Part shown: positions 5,828 through 16,990 of the stretch, piece after piece
How the letters are laid out: each line of letters begins with the position of its first letter
Position numbering within the stretch: the first letter of the stretch is position 1
NCBI RefSeq assembly: GCF_030652775.1
Contig: NZ_JAUSPS010000010.1
Location: 19,280 to 83,279 of the forward strand
Length of the DNA stretch: 64,000 nucleotides
From: Acetobacterium sp.
Lineage (GTDB): Bacteria > Bacillota > Clostridia > Eubacteriales > Eubacteriaceae
Reading direction: 5' to 3'
Program-made: the position numbers and the translations under genes
Notes under the pieces: model-generated
Told to the model about the DNA's origin: nothing
Database searches by the model: none
Seen by the model: the letters and a program-made list of their open reading frames with translations, nothing else

Positions 5828-8239
5828 TTATTCCATCGCCCGCAATCGTTCAACCAAGGAATTGTTTTGAAAAGAGCGTACTGAAACACCCGAAACCAGA
5901 ACCGGCACCAGCAATGTGACCAGAAGGTATGCTAGAAAATACCAAATCGGAAAGCGATAGTGCATATAGGTTGCGCCAAGTTCCCGCAGCAGATGGACCA
6001 GCAGGTATCCCATCCCGGTACCCACTATCAAGGTAATAACCAGATTCCCCAACGCCAGAATTAATCCCTCGCCCTGAACCATCTTCATCAATTGGCCACT
6101 CGTCATTCCGATTGATTGCAGCATTGAAAACTCCTGTCGACGCGAAATAATATTGGTCATCAGCGTGTTGATCAGATTGATCAGACTAAAGGCGATAATA
6201 AAAATTGACAGCCCCAGAATCACTCGATTGATCAGAGTGAACGATATCTTATCGGCAATCAGCTCTTCTCTAAGCGTATCCATTGCCAGGAGCGGATTTT
6301 CGTTGACCAGATTTTGTATCTGCGGCTCAATCTCAGCCCCTCTCAATTCTAAATCATCAACCGAGACCACCAGCGTTTCAGTGGTGTCAACCCCAGGAAA
6401 TAAGAGATCCAGCTTTTCCCGGGGAATGAGAAACCAGCCGGAATTATAAGTTACTTCGCTATAAGTATCGATGGCGCCGACCACCTTAAAATTTTTCTCT
6501 ACTTCCTCGGTGCCGTTGAAATAATGGAGGGTGACAGTGTCGCCCATTTCAAATTTCCAGCCAAATATTTCCTCCGCCACGCCATTAAGAACAATCAGCA
6601 GTTCGTCATTGGCAATCATTTCGTCATAATCAAAGTTGCCTTCTTCTAAGACATTTCTAACATTTTCCTGATCTTCCCGGGTAAATGGAGCCAGGCTGTC
6701 CTGATTGTTGACTTGATCCTTGTAATCGTAATTGACTTGGGCTTTATGATAACTTTGTACCGCTTTGACGCCGTCAATTTCTTTAATGCTTTCAATAAAT
6801 TCGGGATTCAGAGGATTGTTCAGCTGAATCCCGACATTGCCGTTCTCCATCGTTTGTGAGGCATTATAGTCATAGGCGATGATGTATTCACCCCATTGAT
6901 AAAAGCCCTGTCGGGAATAATCCTCCGCTGTCATGGAGCCGATAAATGTCGCTCCGGAGAGAAAAATAACCCCGCCAACGCCCAGGGAAATCATCGTCAA
7001 TAGTGTTTTTTTGCGATTCCTTTCGGCACTCATCATTGCCAGATGCAACGGCGTCATTTTCCGTTTGATGCTTTTAGATTCTTTTTTTCGACTCTGGCGG
7101 TACTGTGAAAAAAGCGATGCCTCAATCGACGTAACAGAGGCTGCCAGTTTTGCCGGTTTTCGGATAGAAATCAACACAGTGATCAGATCGGCCAGCAGGA
7201 TGATCAAACTGACAATCAGGGTGCTTTCCCAGTCCCAGCCGCCCGGCTTGATATAATAAGCGATCGGCCAGGCAATCAGAAAGCCTGCCATCGACCCGAT
7301 CAGGCAGAGCAAAACCCCTTCCCGTCTGACTAAGGCCCTAATCTGTTTTTTGGTTGCTCCCAGTGTTCGCAGTTGCCCAAACTGCCGGATTCTGCCGACC
7401 ACCGAAAGATAGAAGACACTGTAGATAACCAATACACTAACCAGCAGGATGCCGATACCAACGCCGACAGCTACCCCAACATTCATGGCCGACATCGTCA
7501 GCGAATTGGAAAAATAGTTGTTTTCATTGATGTTTTTTCGTTCGATTCCGGCCTCTGCACCAATGCTACGAATGGTATCCAGAAACTCCTGCTCAGACAT
7601 ACCCTCGGCCCCCTGAATTCGACAAAGTGCATGATAGGCGACATCCTTTAATTGTGGTCCATTCTCGGCATATTCCCGGGAAAAGATTAGCGGATAGACC
7701 TTGGTAACCTCCGCTTCTTCTAAAAATCCGCAAACGATAAAGGTTTCGGTTTCCCCATCCAGAAAGGTCAGAGAAACCGTCTCCCCGATCGTGGCCGGCA
7801 CGCCCAGTACCTTCATCAAGGATTTGTTAACCGCAATTTCATTGAATTGATGGGGATAGCTGCCTTCGATAACCGCAGTTGTTTTAATCGGCGCCGTTAT
7901 TTCCTCATAATAAACTGGCTGGATCATTTCTCCATTTAGTTCAAAGCCCTGACCCAATTTATCCAGAGTCATAAATTCAACCTGTTCTTCGCTCTCCAGC
8001 GCGGCAATCTGGGCCGCATTTACATTCATATAGGTGACATGCTGCATCATCGCTACCTGTCTTTTTAGTTCAATACCCTGGGCCGAGGTGAACAATGCCA
8101 TCACCCCCAGCAAACTGACGGACAGGGCAATGGTTATGAGGATAAAGAGATTTCTTGTTTTACTGGTTTTGATACTGCGCATGGCAAGATGACGAATAAT
8201 GGCCTGATTGTTGTTTATGATTTTTTTTGCCGTTTTCAT
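5828..8239 (-). CDS. ABC transporter permease, double FtsX/MacB-type
   Basis: 803 aa. Two FtsX units (RIRQFGQLRTLGATKKQI; RRQEFSMLQSIGMTSGQL) with large extracellular loops. Confidence 0.92.
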   Translation of the reverse strand: MKTAKKIINNNQAIIRHLAMRSIKTSKTRNLFILITIALSVSLLGVMALFTSAQGIELKRQVAMMQHVTYMNVNAAQIAALESEEQVEFMTLDKLGQGFELNGEMIQPVYYEEITAPIKTTAVIEGSYPHQFNEIAVNKSLMKVLGVPATIGETVSLTFLDGETETFIVCGFLEEAEVTKVYPLIFSREYAENGPQLKDVAYHALCRIQGAEGMSEQEFLDTIRSIGAEAGIERKNINENNYFSNSLTMSAMNVGVAVGVGIGILLVSVLVIYSVFYLSVVGRIRQFGQLRTLGATKKQIRALVRREGVLLCLIGSMAGFLIAWPIAYYIKPGGWDWESTLIVSLIILLADLITVLISIRKPAKLAASVTSIEASLFSQYRQSRKKESKSIKRKMTPLHLAMMSAERNRKKTLLTMISLGVGGVIFLSGATFIGSMTAEDYSRQGFYQWGEYIIAYDYNASQTMENGNVGIQLNNPLNPEFIESIKEIDGVKAVQSYHKAQVNYDYKDQVNNQDSLAPFTREDQENVRNVLEEGNFDYDEMIANDELLIVLNGVAEEIFGWKFEMGDTVTLHYFNGTEEVEKNFKVVGAIDTYSEVTYNSGWFLIPREKLDLLFPGVDTTETLVVSVDDLELRGAEIEPQIQNLVNENPLLAMDTLREELIADKISFTLINRVILGLSIFIIAFSLINLINTLMTNIISRRQEFSMLQSIGMTSGQLMKMVQGEGLILALGNLVITLIVGTGMGYLLVHLLRELGATYMHYRFPIWYFLAYLLVTLLVPVLVSGVSVRSFQNNSLVERLRAME

Positions 8240-8904
8240 CGTTTTACGATCTTTCCATCCTCAATGCGAATGATGCGGTCCGCAAGTTGAGCGATTTCAG
8301 TGTTATGGGTGATCATCACCAGCGTCTGGCCGAATTTTTTGATGCTCATTTTTAAAAGACCCAGCACTTCCTGACTGGTTTTACTGTCTAAATTTCCCGT
8401 CGGCTCATCCGCCAGCACAATCGCCGGCTTTGATGCTAAGGCCCTCGCCAGGGCGACCCGCTGTTGCTGTCCCCCGGAGAGATTATTGGGGAAGCGCTGC
8501 GTCATCGTCTGTAAGTGCAGCAGCTCAATAATTGCACGGATATAGTTGCGGTCCGGCTTGTTGCCATCGAGTTCCAGGGGCAAGACAATATTCTCGTAGA
8601 CGTTCAGCATCGAGACCAGATTGTAGTTTTGAAACACAAAGCCAATCTGTCGCCGCCGAAAGATAGTCAGCTGCTCATCGGACATCTGCGAAATTTCTTT
8701 ACCGCCTATCGTTACATTTCCAGCGGTGGGAACGTCCAGTCCGCCCAACATATGGAGCAGTGTCGATTTTCCGCTGCCCGATGTCCCGACAATCGCTAAA
8801 AACTCGCCTTTCTCAACTGCGAGTTCGATACCATCAAGGGCTTTGACGCAATTTTCTTCTTTTCCGTAATATTTTTTTAAATTTTTCGTTTCCAGTATTT
8901 TCAT
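8236..8904 (-). CDS. ABC transporter ATP-binding protein (LolD/MacB-like)
   Basis: GTSGSGKS, LSGGQQQRV, LADEPTGNLD. Start moved to ATG 8904 behind GGAGG. Confidence 0.95.
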   Translation of the reverse strand: MKILETKNLKKYYGKEENCVKALDGIELAVEKGEFLAIVGTSGSGKSTLLHMLGGLDVPTAGNVTIGGKEISQMSDEQLTIFRRRQIGFVFQNYNLVSMLNVYENIVLPLELDGNKPDRNYIRAIIELLHLQTMTQRFPNNLSGGQQQRVALARALASKPAIVLADEPTGNLDSKTSQEVLGLLKMSIKKFGQTLVMITHNTEIAQLADRIIRIEDGKIVKR

Positions 8905-9046
8905 CAAATTGATTCCTCCTGTTTGCGCCAGTATAGCAAGACAAACTAACCAAAATATAACAGTTCTCATGAAATGAATACGAAATTAACTAAAAAAGAG
9001 CATCAATTCTAACAAGCCGGTTAGGATTAACGCTACTTTGACAATT

Positions 9047-10060
9047 TTAAAAAGCATTGGGCAAAAAAATAGAAAAGGTTGAGCCCTCGCCGATAACAGA
9101 GCGCACCATCATATAGCCGTTCTGCTTCTGTATGATTTCACGGGCCAGATAAAGACCGATTCCAATTCCCTCAATCTCCAGATTTGCTTGCTCCCGGTAA
9201 AATCGCTGAAAGATCTTCCCATAATGCGCTTCGGGAATCCCTTTGCCCTGATCGGTGATAGTGATTCGGGTATACATTTCGCATCGTTTGACCTCAACGG
9301 TGATGAAACTGTGATCCGGTGAGTACTTCACCGCATTCTCCAGCACATTGAACAAGGCTTCCGCCGTCCATTTTAAATCATGGTTTAAGCGGTATTCCTC
9401 TGGACAATTAACGGTGATCTGGATCTGCTTTTTTTCGGCCGGAACGGTTATATCCGACAAGGCTGCTGCCAGCGTATCAAACAAATTTTCTGGCTGCCTT
9501 TTAAGTTGAATCAGGCCCGCTTCCAATCGTGACGCTTTTACCATGAAGGATAGTAAAAATTCCAGCTTTTCAAGCTGAGTTCCCATTAATTTGAGCAGTT
9601 CATTTCTGGTCTGCTCCGGCAGATCGCGATCCTGGATGGTTTCGTGCAGCATTTTTAAATTGGTCATTGGCGTTTTTACCTGATGCGATATATCCGAAAT
9701 AAAACCCTCCAGCACCTTTTTTTCAGTGGTTGATTTTTCTGTCGCTATTTTTAATACGTCGGCGATGCGGACAATTTTCTGGTTAATCTTTGAAATCAGT
9801 GTTTCATCCAATAAATCCAGGGCATTGACGTTTTGATAATCATCATTAAACAGCAACTCCAGATTTTCGCTGATGTCATCCGTGATTGCGCTAATGATCT
9901 TTTCATCTCTGCGTTTCACAAAATAGCCGTTCAAAATAAAAAACAGACAGAGTAGCGCCGAAACTGCGGTTGCCAGGGGATGATGGAATAGCAAAAATAT
10001 AAAACCACAGTAAGCAACGCTTAGCAAGATTGCCACGCCCCCCCAAAGCTTATTTCTCAT
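9047..10060 (-). CDS. Sensor histidine kinase (HisKA-HATPase)
   Basis: ISHQVKTP H-box, NVLENAVKYS N-box, DQGKGI, GIGIGLYL. N-terminal TM pair. Start at ATG 10060. Confidence 0.92.
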   Translation of the reverse strand: MRNKLWGGVAILLSVAYCGFIFLLFHHPLATAVSALLCLFFILNGYFVKRRDEKIISAITDDISENLELLFNDDYQNVNALDLLDETLISKINQKIVRIADVLKIATEKSTTEKKVLEGFISDISHQVKTPMTNLKMLHETIQDRDLPEQTRNELLKLMGTQLEKLEFLLSFMVKASRLEAGLIQLKRQPENLFDTLAAALSDITVPAEKKQIQITVNCPEEYRLNHDLKWTAEALFNVLENAVKYSPDHSFITVEVKRCEMYTRITITDQGKGIPEAHYGKIFQRFYREQANLEIEGIGIGLYLAREIIQKQNGYMMVRSVIGEGSTFSIFLPNAF

Positions 10061-10736
10061 CGGGCACCCCCATCCATTGATAACCCATCCCATAAATGGT
10101 TTTGAGATGTTTTTTGTCCCTGGTGTCAATCTTTGATCTGATCCGGCTGATCATCATGGTCAGAGCATTTTCATCGACAAAGTTCTCGTTGCAATCCCAC
10201 AATTTTTCCAGTAGCAGCCGTCTTGTCAGCACCGTCTGGCTGTTTTTGATAAAAATGTCAAGCAGCTTGTATTCGTTGCTGCTAAGCTCGATGGCGTTTC
10301 CACCAAGACTGGCTTTTCGCTCTGAGAAATCAATGATCAGATTGCCGTCGTTATAAATATGCTTCTCAACACTACCGCCATTTCTTTTGATAATCACGGC
10401 GATCTTTTTCAGCATGACGCTAATCAAAAACGGCTTGGTGATGTAATCTTCGGCCCCCAGTTCAAACCCCTTTAAAATATCACTTTCGAGATCATTGGCG
10501 GTTAAAAAAATAATTGGTGTATCGATTTGGTCACGCCATTTTCTACATAAATCAAAACCATTGCCATCGGGCAGATTCACGTCTAAAACGATCAGATCAA
10601 CCTGACTCAGCTCCAGCGTGCTGTCAGCTTCTTTAAAATTGTAGGTCGAAGTCACCTGATATCCCGCTGAAATAAGATTATAGGCCAAGGTGTGATTCAA
10701 CACCTTGTCATCTTCGACAATCAATACCTTCATCAT
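10050..10736 (-). CDS. OmpR-family response regulator
   Basis: LIVEDD, LDVNLPDGNG, DYITKPF, wHTH ending TIYGMGYQW. Confidence 0.95.
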   Translation of the reverse strand: MMKVLIVEDDKVLNHTLAYNLISAGYQVTSTYNFKEADSTLELSQVDLIVLDVNLPDGNGFDLCRKWRDQIDTPIIFLTANDLESDILKGFELGAEDYITKPFLISVMLKKIAVIIKRNGGSVEKHIYNDGNLIIDFSERKASLGGNAIELSSNEYKLLDIFIKNSQTVLTRRLLLEKLWDCNENFVDENALTMMISRIRSKIDTRDKKHLKTIYGMGYQWMGVPDEK

Positions 10737-11030: not shown

Positions 11031-11795
11031 ATGGAAGGAATGAAGATGAACACGAATGTAAATATCCCCTGGCAAAAAATTTATGAGTTTACTCTGACCT
11101 GCGGAAATATGCATGACCTGAAAGCCTTTTGCGCCGAAATTTTGGCCGGCCTTGGCAATCTATGCGACTTCGATCAGTCCCTTGTCTATTTTCTCGATGG
11201 CAATGGCAAGGTGTGTAATCAGTATCTCCACAATATTGACAAACAATGGAGTACCATGTACCTCGAATACTACTCAAAAAGTAAGACCGGCTATTATAGC
11301 CTGGTGAAAAATTTACGCGAAAACCCTGCTAAACCAACCATCAATATCCGAGCCTGGAAAAAAGAACCACCCACCGAGTTTGTTTCTAATTATATTCCTC
11401 CCCGGGGGGTTAAATACTCTCTTGGTTTTGCGCTGTTTGATCTAAACGGCAAGCCGCGAACCTTGTTTGCCCTGGACAAAACAAAAGATGAAAACTTTAC
11501 CGAGACCGAGTTTATGACCCTGTCCCTGGCGGTTCCACAGTTAAACAATCTGCATAAGAATTTTTTCACGCAGCAGACAAGCCGACAAGCTGTTGATCAG
11601 ATTTCCTGGGAAACCACAAACCTGACCTCCCGCGAGATCGAAATTGCCAATCTGCTGTGCCAGGGGATTTCGCCAGCGGTCATCAGTCAATCGCTTTACA
11701 TCTCCCAGTCCACTACCAATAAACATATCGCTCATATCTATGAAAAGATGCATGTTTCCAACCTCCAGGAACTGCTCGTCCGGTTACTGGCTTAA
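11031..11795 (+). CDS. LuxR-family transcriptional regulator with N-terminal sensory (GAF-like) domain
   Basis: C-terminal LTSREIEIANLLCQG...IYEKMHVSN LuxR HTH. The true start may be ATG 11040 or 11046. Confidence 0.88.
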   Translation: MEGMKMNTNVNIPWQKIYEFTLTCGNMHDLKAFCAEILAGLGNLCDFDQSLVYFLDGNGKVCNQYLHNIDKQWSTMYLEYYSKSKTGYYSLVKNLRENPAKPTINIRAWKKEPPTEFVSNYIPPRGVKYSLGFALFDLNGKPRTLFALDKTKDENFTETEFMTLSLAVPQLNNLHKNFFTQQTSRQAVDQISWETTNLTSREIEIANLLCQGISPAVISQSLYISQSTTNKHIAHIYEKMHVSNLQELLVRLLA

Positions 11796-11821
11796 GTAGA
11801 ACAATTATATCGCTAAATAAA

Positions 11822-11869
11822 ATCCCCCTGGAGTAGTCGCCTTTGGGAGGCGCATCTACTCAGGGGGAT
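11822..11869. terminator. GC-rich hairpin between convergent luxR and SDR genes
   Basis: ATCCCCCTGGAGTAG-TCGCC-TTTGGGA-GGCG-CAT-CTACTCAGGGGGAT. Confidence 0.55.
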
Positions 11870-11910
11870 CAAATCCGCAATCTATTCAATTATTGATTGA
11901 CCTGATTTGG

Positions 11911-12837
11911 TCAGTCCGCTTTCGGCCCCGGAATACAGCCGGCAACGGTGTAACTCCATGGCCTCGCCTGATAACTGAGCAGTGAGCCACCATCCACATC
12001 AATGGTCTCACCAACGATGAAGTCCGACATCGCAGTACACATCGCCAATACCACCAGCGCCACCTCGTCAGGATTCATGACCATCGGTGTCTCGCGACCG
12101 TATTTGCCGCGTTCCTCAGCAAACTCCGGTCCATACAGACCAACTGCTTCCGCAGCATTAGTCAGGGCTCCGGCTGTCAGCATCCCACCAGGTGCGACAC
12201 AGTTGACACTGATGCCGTATTGGCGCAATTCTTTCGCAATTCCCTTTGTCATACTGACAATCGCCCCCTTGGCTGCATTATAGTGGGTCATCGTACCCAA
12301 TTTAGCGGCGTCAGAGCCTTTATGAGCAACTGACGAAATGAACACAATTTTTCCCTTGGTCTTTTGCGCAACCATCACCCGGGCAGCCGCCTGGGCAATA
12401 AAATATTCGCCCTTTAAATCGGTGTTGATCACCGTGTCAAAAGCCTCTTCTGGCATATCCAGAAACGAATACATTGACCATACTGCGGCATTGGCCACGA
12501 CAATATCAACGCCGCCGTATTGTGCCACCGCATAATCAACTGCGGCATAACAGTCAGACACCTTGTTAACATCGGTCTGGAACCACTTTACTTCAAAATC
12601 TCTGGCCCGAAAATCAGCCTCGGCCTTCATCCCGGTCATTTCTTTTCGCGATGCAATGACCACCCGCACGCCGGCCTCGGCTAAACGGTTTACGACGTTA
12701 TAACCCAACCCAGTGGCGCCACCGGTTACGATTGCCACCTTACCCGCCAGATCCTTGCCGAACACTTCCGGTAGACTACGAATTTGCTGGGTACTTTTTT
12801 CCGCCATTGCTAAGATTGTATTGGCATCCATTTTCAT
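11911..12837 (-). CDS. Short-chain dehydrogenase/reductase (SDR)
   Basis: TGGATGLG Rossmann motif, VVANAA, catalytic Ser and YNAAK, VNCVAPGG. Confidence 0.93.
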   Translation of the reverse strand: MKMDANTILAMAEKSTQQIRSLPEVFGKDLAGKVAIVTGGATGLGYNVVNRLAEAGVRVVIASRKEMTGMKAEADFRARDFEVKWFQTDVNKVSDCYAAVDYAVAQYGGVDIVVANAAVWSMYSFLDMPEEAFDTVINTDLKGEYFIAQAAARVMVAQKTKGKIVFISSVAHKGSDAAKLGTMTHYNAAKGAIVSMTKGIAKELRQYGISVNCVAPGGMLTAGALTNAAEAVGLYGPEFAEERGKYGRETPMVMNPDEVALVVLAMCTAMSDFIVGETIDVDGGSLLSYQARPWSYTVAGCIPGPKAD

Positions 12838-12961
12838 AAAATCGTCTCCCCTAACTTATCACATAAAATTATTTTCACTTTTGTTTAGTTGGCGTATGAA
12901 CCAGTCACACTTAACTCAGTTCATCCGCCCGTCTTGCTCTTTCTGAAAATTACCGTCTTGG

Positions 12962-13870
12962 CTATCTTACCGTGTACTTTTGTTCCAACTGGTTCAGGAA
13001 TTTGTCAAGTTCCTGCGCATCCATGTGGAAGCCGTGCTTATCTTCGGGATATACACCAGTCCGAACATCATTAGCCCAGCCACTGTATGCGGTTGCAGCC
13101 CACTTAAAGAAATCACCATAGGCCTTGGCATGAGCAGCCGCTGATGGCATCATGTTGAAGGTATCAAAGTCAACCATTTCGGAACCGTCAGCGTCACCAC
13201 CGGCACAAATGGCAACCACTGGTACACTCAGTTTCCTGGCGATGGCGTTGGTAACTTCGATCGGGGTCAGTTCAATGGTCATGCCCATCATCCCATTTTC
13301 CTGATACTCATAAGCCATTCGGAAAACATCCATGGCATCTTCTGCAGTTTTACCCAGACGCTTGTAGCCACCATGCCGACTGGTCTGCCAGCCCGACAGC
13401 GCCCCGACGTGACCGAATACAACCAGATGGTTATCGGCCATATACTTCAGAGTCTCGTTACTGACACCCATCGGGAGCAGGGAGTCAGCGCCATTGGCCA
13501 TGTACAGGGAGCCGTTTTTTAAAGCCTCTTCTTTAGAGCAGTAGGTCGGGGTCTGCATATAGAAGTTAAGATGGATCAGCTGCGCCGCACTGCGGACGTC
13601 GCGAATCCGCCAGCTGGCGTTGGCAATCTGCATCTCGGTGTTCTCACCGGGAGTCGTCAGGCGACAGATGTCACAGTCAGCCATTTCAGCGGCCATCACA
13701 AAATACTTGTCGCGGTCGGCTGGGCACATCTGCACAATCTTCTCGCCATTATCCTTCTTCTCCTGAAGATAAGCGATTGATTTTCGGCCTTTTTTCATCT
13801 TGGATGCTTTAACACCTTGTTTTTCTTCTTTACTGATTTCGACTTCGTTGTTTCCCTTTTCTGTTGACAT
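12962..13870 (-). CDS. Divergent PanB (ketopantoate hydroxymethyltransferase)-fold protein
   Basis: FGHVG, GGYKRLGK, TIELTP, VPVVAICAG, GVYPEDKHGF match the PanB C-terminal half. The GDS, AD(L/M)PF and KIEG motifs are absent. Confidence 0.75.
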   Translation of the reverse strand: MSTEKGNNEVEISKEEKQGVKASKMKKGRKSIAYLQEKKDNGEKIVQMCPADRDKYFVMAAEMADCDICRLTTPGENTEMQIANASWRIRDVRSAAQLIHLNFYMQTPTYCSKEEALKNGSLYMANGADSLLPMGVSNETLKYMADNHLVVFGHVGALSGWQTSRHGGYKRLGKTAEDAMDVFRMAYEYQENGMMGMTIELTPIEVTNAIARKLSVPVVAICAGGDADGSEMVDFDTFNMMPSAAAHAKAYGDFFKWAATAYSGWANDVRTGVYPEDKHGFHMDAQELDKFLNQLEQKYTVR

Positions 13871-14299
13871 ATGAAATCCTCCTTTTATTTTGGGTCATTG
13901 CCCATCATTCCAAACACGTCCGAACTCCACATCCTTTTCAGATGGCTGGTGCCGGTTTGTAACACGATCGCAATTTTGTTAGTTGAGCGTGTAATCCTTT
14001 TCATGTTTTGCTTGAGTTAACTATATCAAAAAGAGTTTTATCGAGTAATTAGTAATTTTATGTATTAAATATTATCGATTTTACCCATTTTACGGACAAT
14101 AAAAAAATGATATAATATCTAATTCTCAATATTATATCACTTGAATTACATTACATCGTATTATAAACAATATCCGGGGGTGAGAGGTTCCGAGAAGAAC
14201 ATCCGGTTTTTTTTATTTCCGCATAAAAAAATCTGCAGACCAAGACAAAAATCGGGAAATAGTCAGACCTATTATTTCCGTGATTCCATTTTTACTTGT

Positions 14300-15028
14300 T
14301 TAATTGCTATTTCTAATCTTCCTGACATTATTATTCATTAAATGTCTTCCCAGATTTTTATAGATGAATTTTTTTATTTCAGACATTTCCTGACGATGTT
14401 CCTTGAGCAAATCATCGGGATTATCATAAACGCCAAAATCCTGAGTTATACCTTCACTTTGGATGTAGGTGTTGTTCTTGTTCCAATCAATAATTGGATG
14501 TTGAAAGTCTTTTACTGCCACCCCATATCCACAAAAAGGGCCCGTACATTCACTGTTAATTTTCTGCAATTTCTCCAGGTACTTTTTATCCAGAATAAAT
14601 CCCTCTAACTCACACCAATTGTTTTCATATAATACTTCAACCCAGCTATGAAATACATTCTTTGGTGCATTTTTGTAGACAATTCCCGTCATCGCGCCTT
14701 TTTGCAACTTTTTATCAATCGTAAACCCATGAACTCGACACGGTATTCCAACTGCTCTTAACAGGGCCATAAAAAGTGTTCCTTTCGTGTTGCATTGCCC
14801 ATATCCATCTGAGAGGACTTTTGATGCCGGGATGTTGTCGTCCACATTATAGCCAAACATTATTTCATCCCTAACATAATTATAAATTGCCTTTATCTGT
14901 TGATCGTCTTCAAGATTTTCCCATTTCCTAATTTTTATTAAATCCTGGATTCTTTGATGAGAATAATCTAATAGTTTTGTTTCATCTAAATATCTATTGC
15001 TTTCCATTGATATCATCTCCCTAATCAA
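14300..15028 (-). CDS. Transglutaminase-like domain protein (intact copy)
   Basis: DGYGQCNTKGTLFMALLRAVGIPCR (catalytic Cys), HSWVEV, LEGFILD. Confidence 0.9.
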   Translation of the reverse strand: MIREMISMESNRYLDETKLLDYSHQRIQDLIKIRKWENLEDDQQIKAIYNYVRDEIMFGYNVDDNIPASKVLSDGYGQCNTKGTLFMALLRAVGIPCRVHGFTIDKKLQKGAMTGIVYKNAPKNVFHSWVEVLYENNWCELEGFILDKKYLEKLQKINSECTGPFCGYGVAVKDFQHPIIDWNKNNTYIQSEGITQDFGVYDNPDDLLKEHRQEMSEIKKFIYKNLGRHLMNNNVRKIRNSN

Positions 15029-15139
15029 AAGCTGAATTTTTTACTCAAATAACAGCAGGTTCATATGCTTGTTACATCTTTTTATAGGATATATTATTTA
15101 AACGTCCAAGTAAAGTAAGTTGTTAGGCCTAACCTAAAA

Positions 15140-15330
15140 GTTACGTTCCTTTTTTTGCTTAACGACGCGGGGCTCAGGGCGCTGCATAATTTCCGGGAAA
15201 AATGAGTGTTTGTACCATCAAAAATAAATGCGTTAAAGGAGACTAAACAATGACTTTTCGGGGAAAAACCACTGATAATGACATGACTAAAGAATTGTAG
15301 ACTTTTGAATCCCGAGCCAAAAGCGATGTC
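15140..15330 (+). pseudogene. Remnant of padR 3' end plus DUF1048-like 5' end
   Basis: Manual translation RSFFLLNDAGLRALHNFREK*VFVPSKINALKETKQ, then MTFRGKTTDNDMTKEL*TFESRAK. Internal stops; resembles padR-DUF1048 operons. Confidence 0.55.
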
Positions 15331-15441
15331 CCACAACAATAGCAACGCAACCAAAGCTGACATTTTTTGTGCCATTATGTTAACATTAATTGATGGATGT
15401 CATTTCCAAAAGCTGGTAGAATAAGGACAGGTGGTGAAAAT

Positions 15442-15909
15442 ATGAAAAATGTGATTAGTATGAATTTACAGACCCTACGAAAAACCCATCAGTACACACA
15501 GGAAGATGTAGCCGATAAAATCGCAGTTTCCCGGCAGTCCGTTGCTAAATGGGAAAACGGCGAAAGCTTACCGGATATGAATAAATGCATTGCCCTGGCT
15601 CAGCTTTATAACATTTCCCTTGATACCCTCGTCAACGGAACCGAAACGTCAGGAGTACCCTTGCCGCCAAAAGGGAAGCACGTTTTTGGCACGGTGATTG
15701 TTGGCGAACGCGGACAAATTGTCATTCCCAAAAAAGCCCGGGAAGTCTTTCAGATCAATCCCGGAGACAACCTGATGATTCTGGGTGATGATAATCAGGG
15801 GGGCCTTGCCCTGATTGACGCCAGTCGATTCATCAGTCAGTTTGAGTTTGTTAAACAAAGTTTGGGCTATGCCGATCGAACCGTTAAGGATAACGAAAGT
15901 GAAGATTAA
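15442..15909 (+). CDS. XRE-family HTH fused to an AbrB-like domain
   Basis: LRKTHQYTQEDVADKIAVSRQSVAKWENGESLPD HTH, then VGERGQIVIPKKAREVFQINPGD. Start at ATG 15442. Confidence 0.9.
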   Translation: MKNVISMNLQTLRKTHQYTQEDVADKIAVSRQSVAKWENGESLPDMNKCIALAQLYNISLDTLVNGTETSGVPLPPKGKHVFGTVIVGERGQIVIPKKAREVFQINPGDNLMILGDDNQGGLALIDASRFISQFEFVKQSLGYADRTVKDNESED

Positions 15910-16990
15910 GAAAATGCAAGTAGTCCTGATTGTTTTGGCTTTTTTAGTAATCGGCGGCGCCGCCGTCTTTGGTTATTTTTTTTACAGCAATTTACATCCG
16001 ATCGATGATCGCTATCTCAAACAGACCCTCGCCGCTGGCTTTACTGAACAAACAGCCACGCTGGATAATGGTTCGGTTATTAATTATGGTGAGGGGCCAG
16101 ATAACGGCCCCGCCCTGCTGTTAATCCACGGACAGGGCGTTTCCTGGGAGGATTATGCCGCAGTTCTGCCCGAATTATCGAAAAACTATCATGTCTTTGC
16201 GGTGGACTGCTTTGGCCACGGTCAATCCAGTCATGATCCAGCGCTTTATTCCTGTGCAGCCAACGGCCAGGCGCTGATTGCATTTATGGAGCGTGTTATC
16301 GGTGAAAAATGCTTTGTCTCTGGTCATTCTTCCGGTGGTATTCTAGCTGCCTGGCTTGGCGCCAACGCACCGGAGCTGGTCAGCGGCGTTCTACTTGAAG
16401 ACCCCCCACTCTTTTCCGTGACCCCTGAGGAAATGCAGGAAGGATCCGGCTGCTTTGCCTGGCAGGATACCTTCATGACCATCCACGGCTTTCTGAATCA
16501 AACGGCTGAAACGGATTTTGTTGTCTATTATTATAAGCATGGCTATATGGTTTCCCTTTTCGGCGGCTTAAAAGAAAAGGTGGTAACGGCCGTTGAGACG
16601 TTCCGCCCAGAACATCCCGATCAGGGGCCCAGAATCTACTGGATTCCCTATTCCTGGCTGCGACTGATGAATACCATTGATCACTATGATCTGGCCTTCG
16701 GCGAGAGTTTTTACGATGGTTCATGGATGAATGGGGTCGATCAGGAAACGATGCTAAAAACGATTTCGGCTCCGACAATTTATCTGAAAGCCGAAACAAA
16801 TTACGGTAAGGACGGGGTCTTGTACGCCGCCAACACCGATGAAGATGCCAACAAGGTTCAGGCTTTGCTCTCCGATTGCGAAACCCTGACCATCAAATCA
16901 GGCCATGACATCCATTATGAGCATCCCGTCTTTTTCATTTCCGCGTTAAACAATCTGCAGACCAAGATAAAAATAGAGGAAATAGTCTAA
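15899..16990 (+). CDS. Membrane-anchored/secreted alpha/beta hydrolase
   Basis: N-terminal TM, LLIHGQG, VDCFGHG, GHSSGG nucleophile, SGHDIH. Probable GTG start at 15899. Confidence 0.88.
   Translation: MKIKKMQVVLIVLAFLVIGGAAVFGYFFYSNLHPIDDRYLKQTLAAGFTEQTATLDNGSVINYGEGPDNGPALLLIHGQGVSWEDYAAVLPELSKNYHVFAVDCFGHGQSSHDPALYSCAANGQALIAFMERVIGEKCFVSGHSSGGILAAWLGANAPELVSGVLLEDPPLFSVTPEEMQEGSGCFAWQDTFMTIHGFLNQTAETDFVVYYYKHGYMVSLFGGLKEKVVTAVETFRPEHPDQGPRIYWIPYSWLRLMNTIDHYDLAFGESFYDGSWMNGVDQETMLKTISAPTIYLKAETNYGKDGVLYAANTDEDANKVQALLSDCETLTIKSGHDIHYEHPVFFISALNNLQTKIKIEEIV

Follow-up and report, generated by a model that had tools for sequence, protein, structure and literature searches.

Within a 64,000-nucleotide stretch of an Acetobacterium sp. 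genome (NCBI RefSeq assembly GCF_030652775.1, contig NZ_JAUSPS010000010.1, positions 19,280 to 83,279; the whole stretch is called the window here), we analysed a gene whose product has the fold of the pantothenate enzyme PanB and none of the three residues that bind Mg2+ in that enzyme. The gene for this PanB-like protein (12962-13870, reverse strand, 302 aa) lies beside genes for a short-chain dehydrogenase/reductase (SDR) and a LuxR-type regulator. We propose that the three form a mobile, inducible catabolic cassette that transfers formaldehyde-level carbon to tetrahydrofolate (THF) without a metal, and we put the probability of this reading at about 0.45. The wider statement, that the PanB-like protein is some THF-linked one-carbon (C1) enzyme and not a 3-methyl-2-oxobutanoate hydroxymethyltransferase (ketopantoate hydroxymethyltransferase, KPHMT), is one that we consider probable.

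The assignment to the PanB fold is strong at both the sequence and the structure level. The protein matches PF02548 with 129.6 bits (cut-off 28.7), at about 23% identity to canonical PanB. Its AlphaFold model, built on 38 family members, is an eight-stranded TIM barrel with a mean predicted local distance difference test score (pLDDT) of 84.6. The top Protein Data Bank (PDB) matches of this model in Foldseek are all KPHMT (3vav, 1m3u, 3ez4 and 1o66; template-modelling (TM) score about 0.8, target-normalised), and methylisocitrate lyases rank far below them.

We take the Mg2+ ligands of 1m3u to be Asp45, Asp84 and Glu114 in E. coli numbering, and located the corresponding positions by phmmer against 1m3u, by MAFFT with canonical PanBs, by profile-profile alignment with hhalign and by the ends of the predicted strands. 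No Asp or Glu was found at any of them. Asp84 is replaced by Tyr104 (NFYMQT in place of LADLPF), while Glu114 and Lys112 are replaced by Met134 and Leu132 (LLPMG, around the KIEG of PanB). A preliminary description of this DNA, made by reading the sequence, had proposed the loss of all three ligands and these two motif changes, and all of this is borne out. It had also read VGDS as exchanged for RLTTPG residue for residue, which does not hold: the Asp45 segment is gone, with hhalign dropping GDSLGM after Leu71 and MAFFT setting Thr73 opposite Asp45 and deleting the next eight residues, and Lys112 is lost as well. The phmmer register suggested Asp67 (CDIC) as a displaced Asp45; MAFFT, hhalign and the strand positions ruled this out, as Asp67 falls where strand 2 begins (residues 68-71 in the model), opposite the Asp of 'AGIDAIL', which is not a ligand. 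The parts of the active site that the same description had listed as kept are indeed present, namely His154 of the GH motif (His136 in PanB), Glu200 of TIELTP (Glu181) and the C-terminus GVYPEDKHGFH.

These changes are characteristic of a whole protein family. The pattern at the ligand positions, x-[Y/V]-L-M-H-E, is fixed across the family, which argues that the changes did not arise by chance; the canonical pattern D-D-K-E-H-E was found in 38 of the 80 full-length 50%-identity representatives compared. The equivalents of His154 and Glu200 are invariant in the family and present in all relatives compared, and they belong to 40 columns that are invariant over 38 diverse members, among them also D236, R70, N102, W161 and E231. 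The observation of a PanB fold without metal ligands is confirmed.

KPHMT needs a divalent metal, which participates in binding of the 2-oxo acid (PMC13488298). The protein scores far below the NCBIfam panB equivalogs TIGR00222 and NF001452 (81.3 bits against a cut-off of 207.55, and 79.5 against 272). A canonical PanB is encoded elsewhere in the genome, on contig C20 beside panC (398.5 bits in Pfam, pattern D-D-K-E-H-E); the PanB-like copy stands outside the pan operon, with the SDR and LuxR-type genes as its neighbours. The gene is moreover patchy in its distribution: 8 of the 27 genomes from the genus carry it, and all 26 from the family's other genera lack it. The earlier judgement that this is unlikely to be a pantothenate enzyme is thus well supported. 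Public records label these proteins 3-methyl-2-oxobutanoate hydroxymethyltransferase, a label that is almost certainly wrong for the family and that would lead to too many pantothenate-pathway calls among anaerobes of gut and sediment.

Comparison with orthologues gave ratios of non-synonymous to synonymous substitution rates (dN/dS) of 0.04-0.06. The gene is under strong purifying selection and is not a decaying copy. A second PanB-like copy, 50% identical and with an in-frame TAA, is found in another genome of the genus (G013, C1:3099684-3100553); this points to decay of the paralogue or else to an error in sequencing.

The family is small and widely scattered. A search of 1.84 billion 50%-identity representatives returned few full-length clusters for it, beyond which the matches fall to 30% identity or less, and a 90%-identity database held 631 matches, the best 120 of which are 66-93% identical. 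Scanning one genome per species gave 197 loci; 80 were kept for analysis, and loci of related genomes among them are not independent. They span Bacillota, Chloroflexota, Actinomycetota, Spirochaetota and Thermodesulfobacteriota, with the PanB-like protein 60-99% identical, and the named isolates are all anaerobes (acetogens, syntrophs, amino-acid fermenters, and gut Lachnospiraceae, Oscillospiraceae and Eggerthellaceae). The protein tree, from a quick search with SH-aLRT support only as for all our trees, intermixes these phyla, and its well-supported branches alone require at least 5 label changes for Bacillota. In the window the PanB-like and SDR genes have a G+C content of about 50-52%, against 41.5% for the window as a whole and 46-48% for certain neighbour genes; the closest relative of the locus is in Acetobacterium malicum DSM 4132 (99% protein identity). 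Distribution and G+C content together are those of an accessory module acquired by transfer. Searches of the literature for a family member already characterised, or for a similar gene cluster, gave nothing relevant.

The SDR gene (11911-12837, reverse strand, 308 aa) follows the PanB-like gene on the same strand after a gap of 125 bp, and the regulator gene (11031-11795, forward strand, 254 aa) converges on the pair, the arrangement that had been described at the outset. To see how far this arrangement is conserved, open reading frames (ORFs) around the 80 loci were called mechanically and then clustered. An SDR was found in 62 loci, a LuxR-type protein of about 250 aa in 60, a trigger-factor C-domain (Trigger_C) protein of about 170 aa in 39 and a Cpn60 paralogue in 30; clusters c5, c8 and c13 were set aside as antisense artefacts of GC-rich loci. 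Individual look-ups of contigs for six members showed the same cassette in all except the most distant (P0127), where the LuxR gene alone was seen beside the PanB-like gene, on short contigs.

The SDR of the window is an intact classical enzyme (PF00106, 148 bits), in whose translation we read the motifs TGGATGLG and VANAAV and the Ser-Tyr-Lys catalytic residues (SS...YNAAK); it also has N- and C-terminal extensions, the latter ending in PWSYT. The sequence 'ASRKE' after strand 2 suggests NADP(H) as its probable cofactor. In the PDB it matches generic enzymes best (borneol, secoisolariciresinol, DHRS4 and gluconate dehydrogenases). Pterin reductases of the FolM/PTR1 type have the motif TGxxxRxG; the motif here is TGxxxGxG, and together with the generic PDB matches this leaves a role as such a reductase without support. 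Two types of SDR partner were distinguished, type 0 (that of the window) in 37 loci and type 1 in 19, which did not co-occur in the sampled loci. The two types are only about 26% identical, whereas the PanB-like protein is 60-99% identical over the same loci; in A. fimetarium the PanB-like protein is 90% identical to that of the window and the SDR 27%.

The regulator ends in a GerE helix-turn-helix (PF00196, 45 bits), and its N-terminal domain had no Pfam match, the autoinducer-binding domain included. Its model (pLDDT 85.8) has two domains and best resembles the acyl-homoserine lactone (AHL) receptors QscR, SdiA and RhlR (TM 0.45-0.5 over the full length), with GAF domains lower in the ranking. 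The earlier designation 'GAF-LuxR' is therefore acceptable at the level of the fold, the modelled N-terminal domain being AHL-receptor-like and hence GAF-like, and is not reflected in Pfam, which detects GerE only. The regulator shares with LuxR receptors and solos (QscR, SdiA, RhlR, TraR) the two-domain architecture, the predicted fold and an 18-bp palindromic box. It differs from them in lacking the Pfam autoinducer-binding domain and in its Gram-positive anaerobic hosts, with no LuxI in sight, and its ligand is likely to be the catabolic substrate rather than an AHL.

This box, ATACnTAAAwTTnnGTAT, precedes the first gene of the cassette in loci of Bacillota, Spirochaetota, Chloroflexota and Actinomycetota, and in an Eggerthellaceae locus it is a perfect palindrome, ATACGTAAAATTACGTAT. 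In 32.8 kb of upstream DNA, a half-pattern of the box, which left out the symmetric right half, gave 16 matches where 1.2 would be expected from whole loci, a 13-fold excess. In the window an imperfect copy, ATACATAAAATTACTAAT, is found at 14048-14065 on the reverse strand, in the 430-bp intergenic stretch upstream of the PanB-like gene. A candidate extended -10 element, TGATATAGT, is located at 14020-14028 on the same strand and lacks a good -35 element, as expected for an activator-dependent promoter. A -10-like hexamer lies 40±1 nt from the start of the box in ten loci from four phyla, and 40 nt in the window. This fixed spacing would place the centre of the box near -43 relative to the presumed transcription start (about 43 nt upstream in the window), the classic lux-box geometry of class II activators (lux box at -42.5). 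The putative 5' leader of about 143 nt (13871-14013, reverse strand) is kept among Acetobacterium relatives and ends in the GGAGG ribosome-binding site of the PanB-like gene (13878-13882); it had no match at E<=1 to any Rfam family, riboswitches such as the THF riboswitch included.

Linkage to folate genes provides the main clue to function. At least one folate or C1 gene was found within about 8 kb in 14 of the 80 loci, where the rate for random genes would be a few per cent by a rough guess, not a computation. The set comprised formate-THF ligase (FTHFS), FchA (FTCD_C), FolD, 5-formyl-THF cyclo-ligase, a GcvT-family protein and the formate channel, with Pfam checks. In Christensenellaceae a co-directional series runs from three SDR genes through the Trigger_C and PanB-like genes to FTHFS, FchA, FolD, the formate channel (FNT), a further gene (x) and a fusion of FolC with 5-formyl-THF cyclo-ligase. 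Shorter co-directional series are PanB-like, FTHFS and FchA in Anaerovoracaceae; PanB-like and 5-formyl-THF cyclo-ligase in two Chloroflexota, with gaps of 52 and 295 nt; and PanB-like, Trigger_C, a 425-aa Cys-rich protein (c42), GcvT and two SDR genes in Mogibacterium. At the Sporosalibacterium and Anaeropeptidivorans loci the neighbours are FNT, FchA, FolD, FTHFS, GcvT and, in Anaeropeptidivorans, 5-formyl-THF cyclo-ligase. The co-directional position of the downstream folate genes is consistent with a single operon. MetF was not among the genes identified in the folate-linked operons, and FolD, FchA and FTHFS without MetF fit carbon that enters at the formaldehyde level, as methylene-THF, the C1 species used by canonical PanB.

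Three further observations were made at these loci. The fusion of folylpolyglutamate synthase (Mur_ligase_M/C) with 5-formyl-THF cyclo-ligase occurs in or beside the cassette in two lineages of Clostridia (L066:14024-15847, L036:82-1818). The GcvT-family protein is accompanied by c42, in or beside the cassette, in Mogibacterium and in a metagenome-assembled genome of Spirochaetia (L056:9941-12295, L029:4041-6311); c42 had no Pfam match, and the two may be a second pair of THF-dependent C1 enzymes. In a Lachnospiraceae locus (L004:1-3610), a URO-D methyltransferase and a reductive activase of corrinoid proteins (RACo) adjoin a cassette with the order Cpn60, two LuxR, two SDR, Trigger_C and PanB-like, which hints at an aromatic or C1 substrate theme in common with the cassette.

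We propose the following course of events. The LuxR-type protein would bind a small organic inducer and switch on the promoter through the box near -43. The NAD(P)-dependent SDR would oxidise a secondary alcohol group in the substrate, giving a carbonyl. The PanB-like enzyme would retain the KPHMT barrel, the Glu/His acid-base pair and, presumably, the THF site, so that the THF half of KPHMT chemistry could be kept through Glu/His, GG[YF]K, DG...D236 and K249. The half that handles Mg2+ and the 2-oxo acid would have been replaced by neutral and aromatic residues and by new invariant polar ones (R70, H100, N102, Y104, W161 and E231). Such an enzyme could run KPHMT chemistry in reverse and without a metal, taking a beta-hydroxymethyl carbon off a neutral carbonyl compound by a retro-aldol-type step to give 5,10-methylene-THF. 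The released carbon would join the Wood-Ljungdahl/folate pool in Acetobacterium; non-acetogens would convert it to formate, with a gain of ATP, by means of the FolD, FchA, FTHFS and formate channel encoded nearby. The remainder of the substrate would probably be excreted. Candidate substrates would carry a 1,3-diol or a beta-hydroxymethyl alcohol, as in phenylpropanoid or lignin-derived side chains and polyols. SDR oxidation followed by C1 or aldol transfer feeding THF had already been suggested in the preliminary description; the repeated adjacency of folate and C1 genes supports the link to THF indirectly, while the reaction and its substrate stand as proposals.

Several points weigh against this course of events. 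The window itself and 66 of the 80 loci lack folate genes, and gene context does not reveal the direction of the reaction. That the PanB-like protein binds THF we infer from retained residues. Metal-free chemistry of the class II aldolase type would require Arg, Tyr or His to stabilise the enolate. Finally, the SDR partner switches between types while the PanB-like protein is nearly constant, a combination that a constant small substrate such as free formaldehyde fits at least as well. This leads to the main rival, which we regard as unlikely though clearly ahead of the other alternatives: a formaldehyde-activating enzyme, in which the PanB-like protein would condense free formaldehyde or a labile hemiacetal with THF, for detoxification or harvest, and the SDR and chaperones would deal with aldehyde stress or an upstream alcohol. 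Such an enzyme explains the constant PanB-like protein beside varying SDRs, and the chaperones that travel with it (Cpn60 and the Trigger_C protein within the cassette), better than the retro-aldol proposal does. It also agrees with the absence of a transporter from most loci, with the sister clades that adjoin oxygenases which would release formaldehyde (see below), and with the operons of FolD, FchA, FTHFS and formate channel, which fit oxidation of formaldehyde to formate. Formaldehyde and THF, however, condense spontaneously, and SDRs are not known to yield formaldehyde. The modelled AHL-receptor-like pocket of the regulator would better suit a larger organic ligand, and the retained general-base Glu of KPHMT fits C-C chemistry.

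The other alternatives are less probable. Enzymes of the ICL/PEPM/KPHMT superfamily proceed via enolate intermediates, and an isomerase, epimerase or beta-eliminase that acts on the SDR-made carbonyl without folate, with Glu200 as base, would account for the invariance of Glu200 and His154 and for the many loci without a folate gene. It would leave unexplained why several phyla show an enrichment of folate genes, placed in the same direction right after the PanB-like gene, and 5-formyl-THF cyclo-ligase and FolC are sensible for folate-cofactor flux only; we hold it to be quite unlikely. Lower still stands a biosynthetic direction, in which methylene-THF would hydroxymethylate a neutral ketone that the SDR then reduces to a pantoate-like diol or a signal molecule. 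The gene pair does parallel PanB and ketopantoate reductase (PanE), and adjacent FTHFS, FolD and formate channel could equally make methylene-THF from formate; yet the cassette looks catabolic, being minimal, induced by a ligand and transferred in a patchy manner, with importers of the major facilitator superfamily (MFS) at some loci and no further biosynthetic genes. A pseudo-enzyme, which the preliminary description had offered as its alternative, seems just as improbable. A catalytically inactive protein, be it a scaffold, a binding protein or a chaperoned partner, with a stabilising or regulatory effect on the SDR would agree with the loss of all metal and substrate ligands and with the frequent pairing with an SDR (62 of 80 loci). 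It is made less likely because the acid/base residues and pocket residues, many of them at the predicted mouth of the barrel, are invariant and dN/dS is about 0.05; two unrelated SDR types speak against a specific protein-protein fit, and the linkage to folate genes against a protein without catalysis. Only a slight chance is given to a methyl-corrinoid:THF methyltransferase (MT2-like), the THF-binding module of a corrinoid demethylase system. One ligand-less sister clade is in an operon with URO-D and a B12-binding protein, and the Lachnospiraceae locus has URO-D and RACo adjoining the cassette, but no corrinoid protein was among the recurrent annotated neighbour clusters of the 80 loci (singletons were not scanned), and the folate-linked operons, with their lack of MetF, suit formaldehyde-level and not methyl-level carbon. 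A true KPHMT with a relocated metal site, which would explain the PF02548 match and the name in public records, is scarcely credible given the low equivalog scores, the missing ligands, Lys112 and substrate loop, the canonical panB elsewhere in the genome, and the accessory, LuxR-linked nature of this gene.

Comparison with relatives and known systems places the proposed transfer of C1 units to THF in a wider setting. In an unrooted tree, a branch with 100% SH-aLRT support separates the ligand-less PF02548 proteins from canonical PanB, and the family of the window is the most divergent branch among them. The family shares with PanB (EC 2.1.2.11; E. coli 1m3u, Burkholderia 3vav/3ez4 and M. tuberculosis 1oy0) the TIM barrel, the GH motif, GG[YF]K, the general-base Glu, DG...D on strand 8, the C-terminal helix motif and, probably, the folate cofactor. 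It differs in lacking Asp45 with its loop, Asp84, Lys112 and Glu114, in scoring far under the equivalog cut-off, and in being accessory, LuxR-linked, SDR-paired and at times accompanied by dedicated chaperones. The sampled sister clades (L094:305-7813, L099:2493-6036, L101:7003-10451) adjoin membrane di-iron oxygenases of the FA_desaturase/sterol-desaturase family with a Rieske or 2Fe-2S ferredoxin and a reductase and, in one case, URO-D and a corrinoid (B12-binding) protein. On the rhizobial plasmid that we inspected, a ligand-less relative stands with a sterol-desaturase-family oxygenase, a ferredoxin and an FAD oxidoreductase, and 272 plasmid records, mostly rhizobial, hold a ligand-less relative labelled KPHMT. 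These neighbours suggest contexts of C1 removal, and our look-ups confirm the pairing of the genes. The oxygenase-paired clades lie on the same side of the tree, have likewise lost the Mg2+ ligands and kept His and Glu, but are only 25-30% identical to the PanB-like protein of the window, carry x-G-Y-[SAPG] at the ligand positions and belong to aerobes, with an O2-dependent oxygenase replacing the SDR. No di-iron oxygenase was among the recurrent annotated neighbour clusters of the 80 loci, singleton neighbours not being scanned.

In the aerobic sister clades the carbonyl could pre-exist and the oxygenase would make the hydroxymethyl group. This leads us to a more specific and more tentative idea, somewhat unlikely in its full form, of a PanB-fold, metal-independent and THF-dependent 'dehydroxymethylase' that harvests hydroxymethyl carbons of abundant alcohols, for instance lignin or phenylpropanoid side chains and polyols, as methylene-THF in strict anaerobes. 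In that form it would give formaldehyde-level carbon an unrecognised way into the Wood-Ljungdahl/folate pathway, besides corrinoid-dependent O-demethylation. On the same tentative footing, one logic might be served by two activating partners, an SDR that installs the carbonyl in anaerobes and a di-iron oxygenase that installs the hydroxymethyl group in aerobes.

The proposed role resembles that of the GcvT-family THF enzymes (DmdA, LigM, SesA and the dimethylglycine/sarcosine enzymes), in that a carbon would be taken from a catabolic substrate and placed onto THF near FolD and FTHFS. Their fold is unrelated to that of the PanB-like protein, and GcvT-like genes sometimes co-occur with the cassette without replacing the PanB-like gene. 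We also considered as a relative the enterodiol-lactonising edl locus of Lactonifactor, which consists of MFS, SDR and NADP-dependent oxidoreductase genes (10.1101/357640); the PanB-like gene is missing there and no link was found.

If the proposed transfer of formaldehyde-level carbon to THF is correct, the cassette would represent a new folate-dependent reaction for harvesting C1 units. Its carrier would be a portable unit of three genes that brings along an operator and in some cases a chaperonin, and that occurs in acetogens, in syntrophs and in the Lachnospiraceae, Oscillospiraceae and Eggerthellaceae of the gut. To our knowledge, transfer of C1 units from other compounds to folate has not been described for the PanB fold. 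Such a reaction would matter for how carbon of plant origin flows through anoxic habitats and for the formation of formate and acetate in the gut. It would further mean that a Mg-dependent, aldolase-type active site has been rebuilt for metal-free work. The regulator and its box could serve as a ready biosensor for the substrate of the cassette.

The genes on either side of the cassette were also inspected. Adjoining the regulator, at 5828-10736 on the reverse strand, is a module that, read from its translations, resembles the Bce type (a 10-transmembrane FtsX-like ABC permease, an ABC ATPase, a histidine kinase and an OmpR-type response regulator) and is apparently unrelated to the cassette. 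Upstream of the cassette, at 14300-16990, are genes for a transglutaminase-core protein (PF01841), an XRE-HTH::AbrB-like fusion and an alpha/beta-hydrolase-like ORF. The two closest Acetobacterium loci (L014 and L015) likewise have homologues of this fusion and of the hydrolase upstream of the cassette, together with PadR-like and DUF1048-like genes, again named from their translations.

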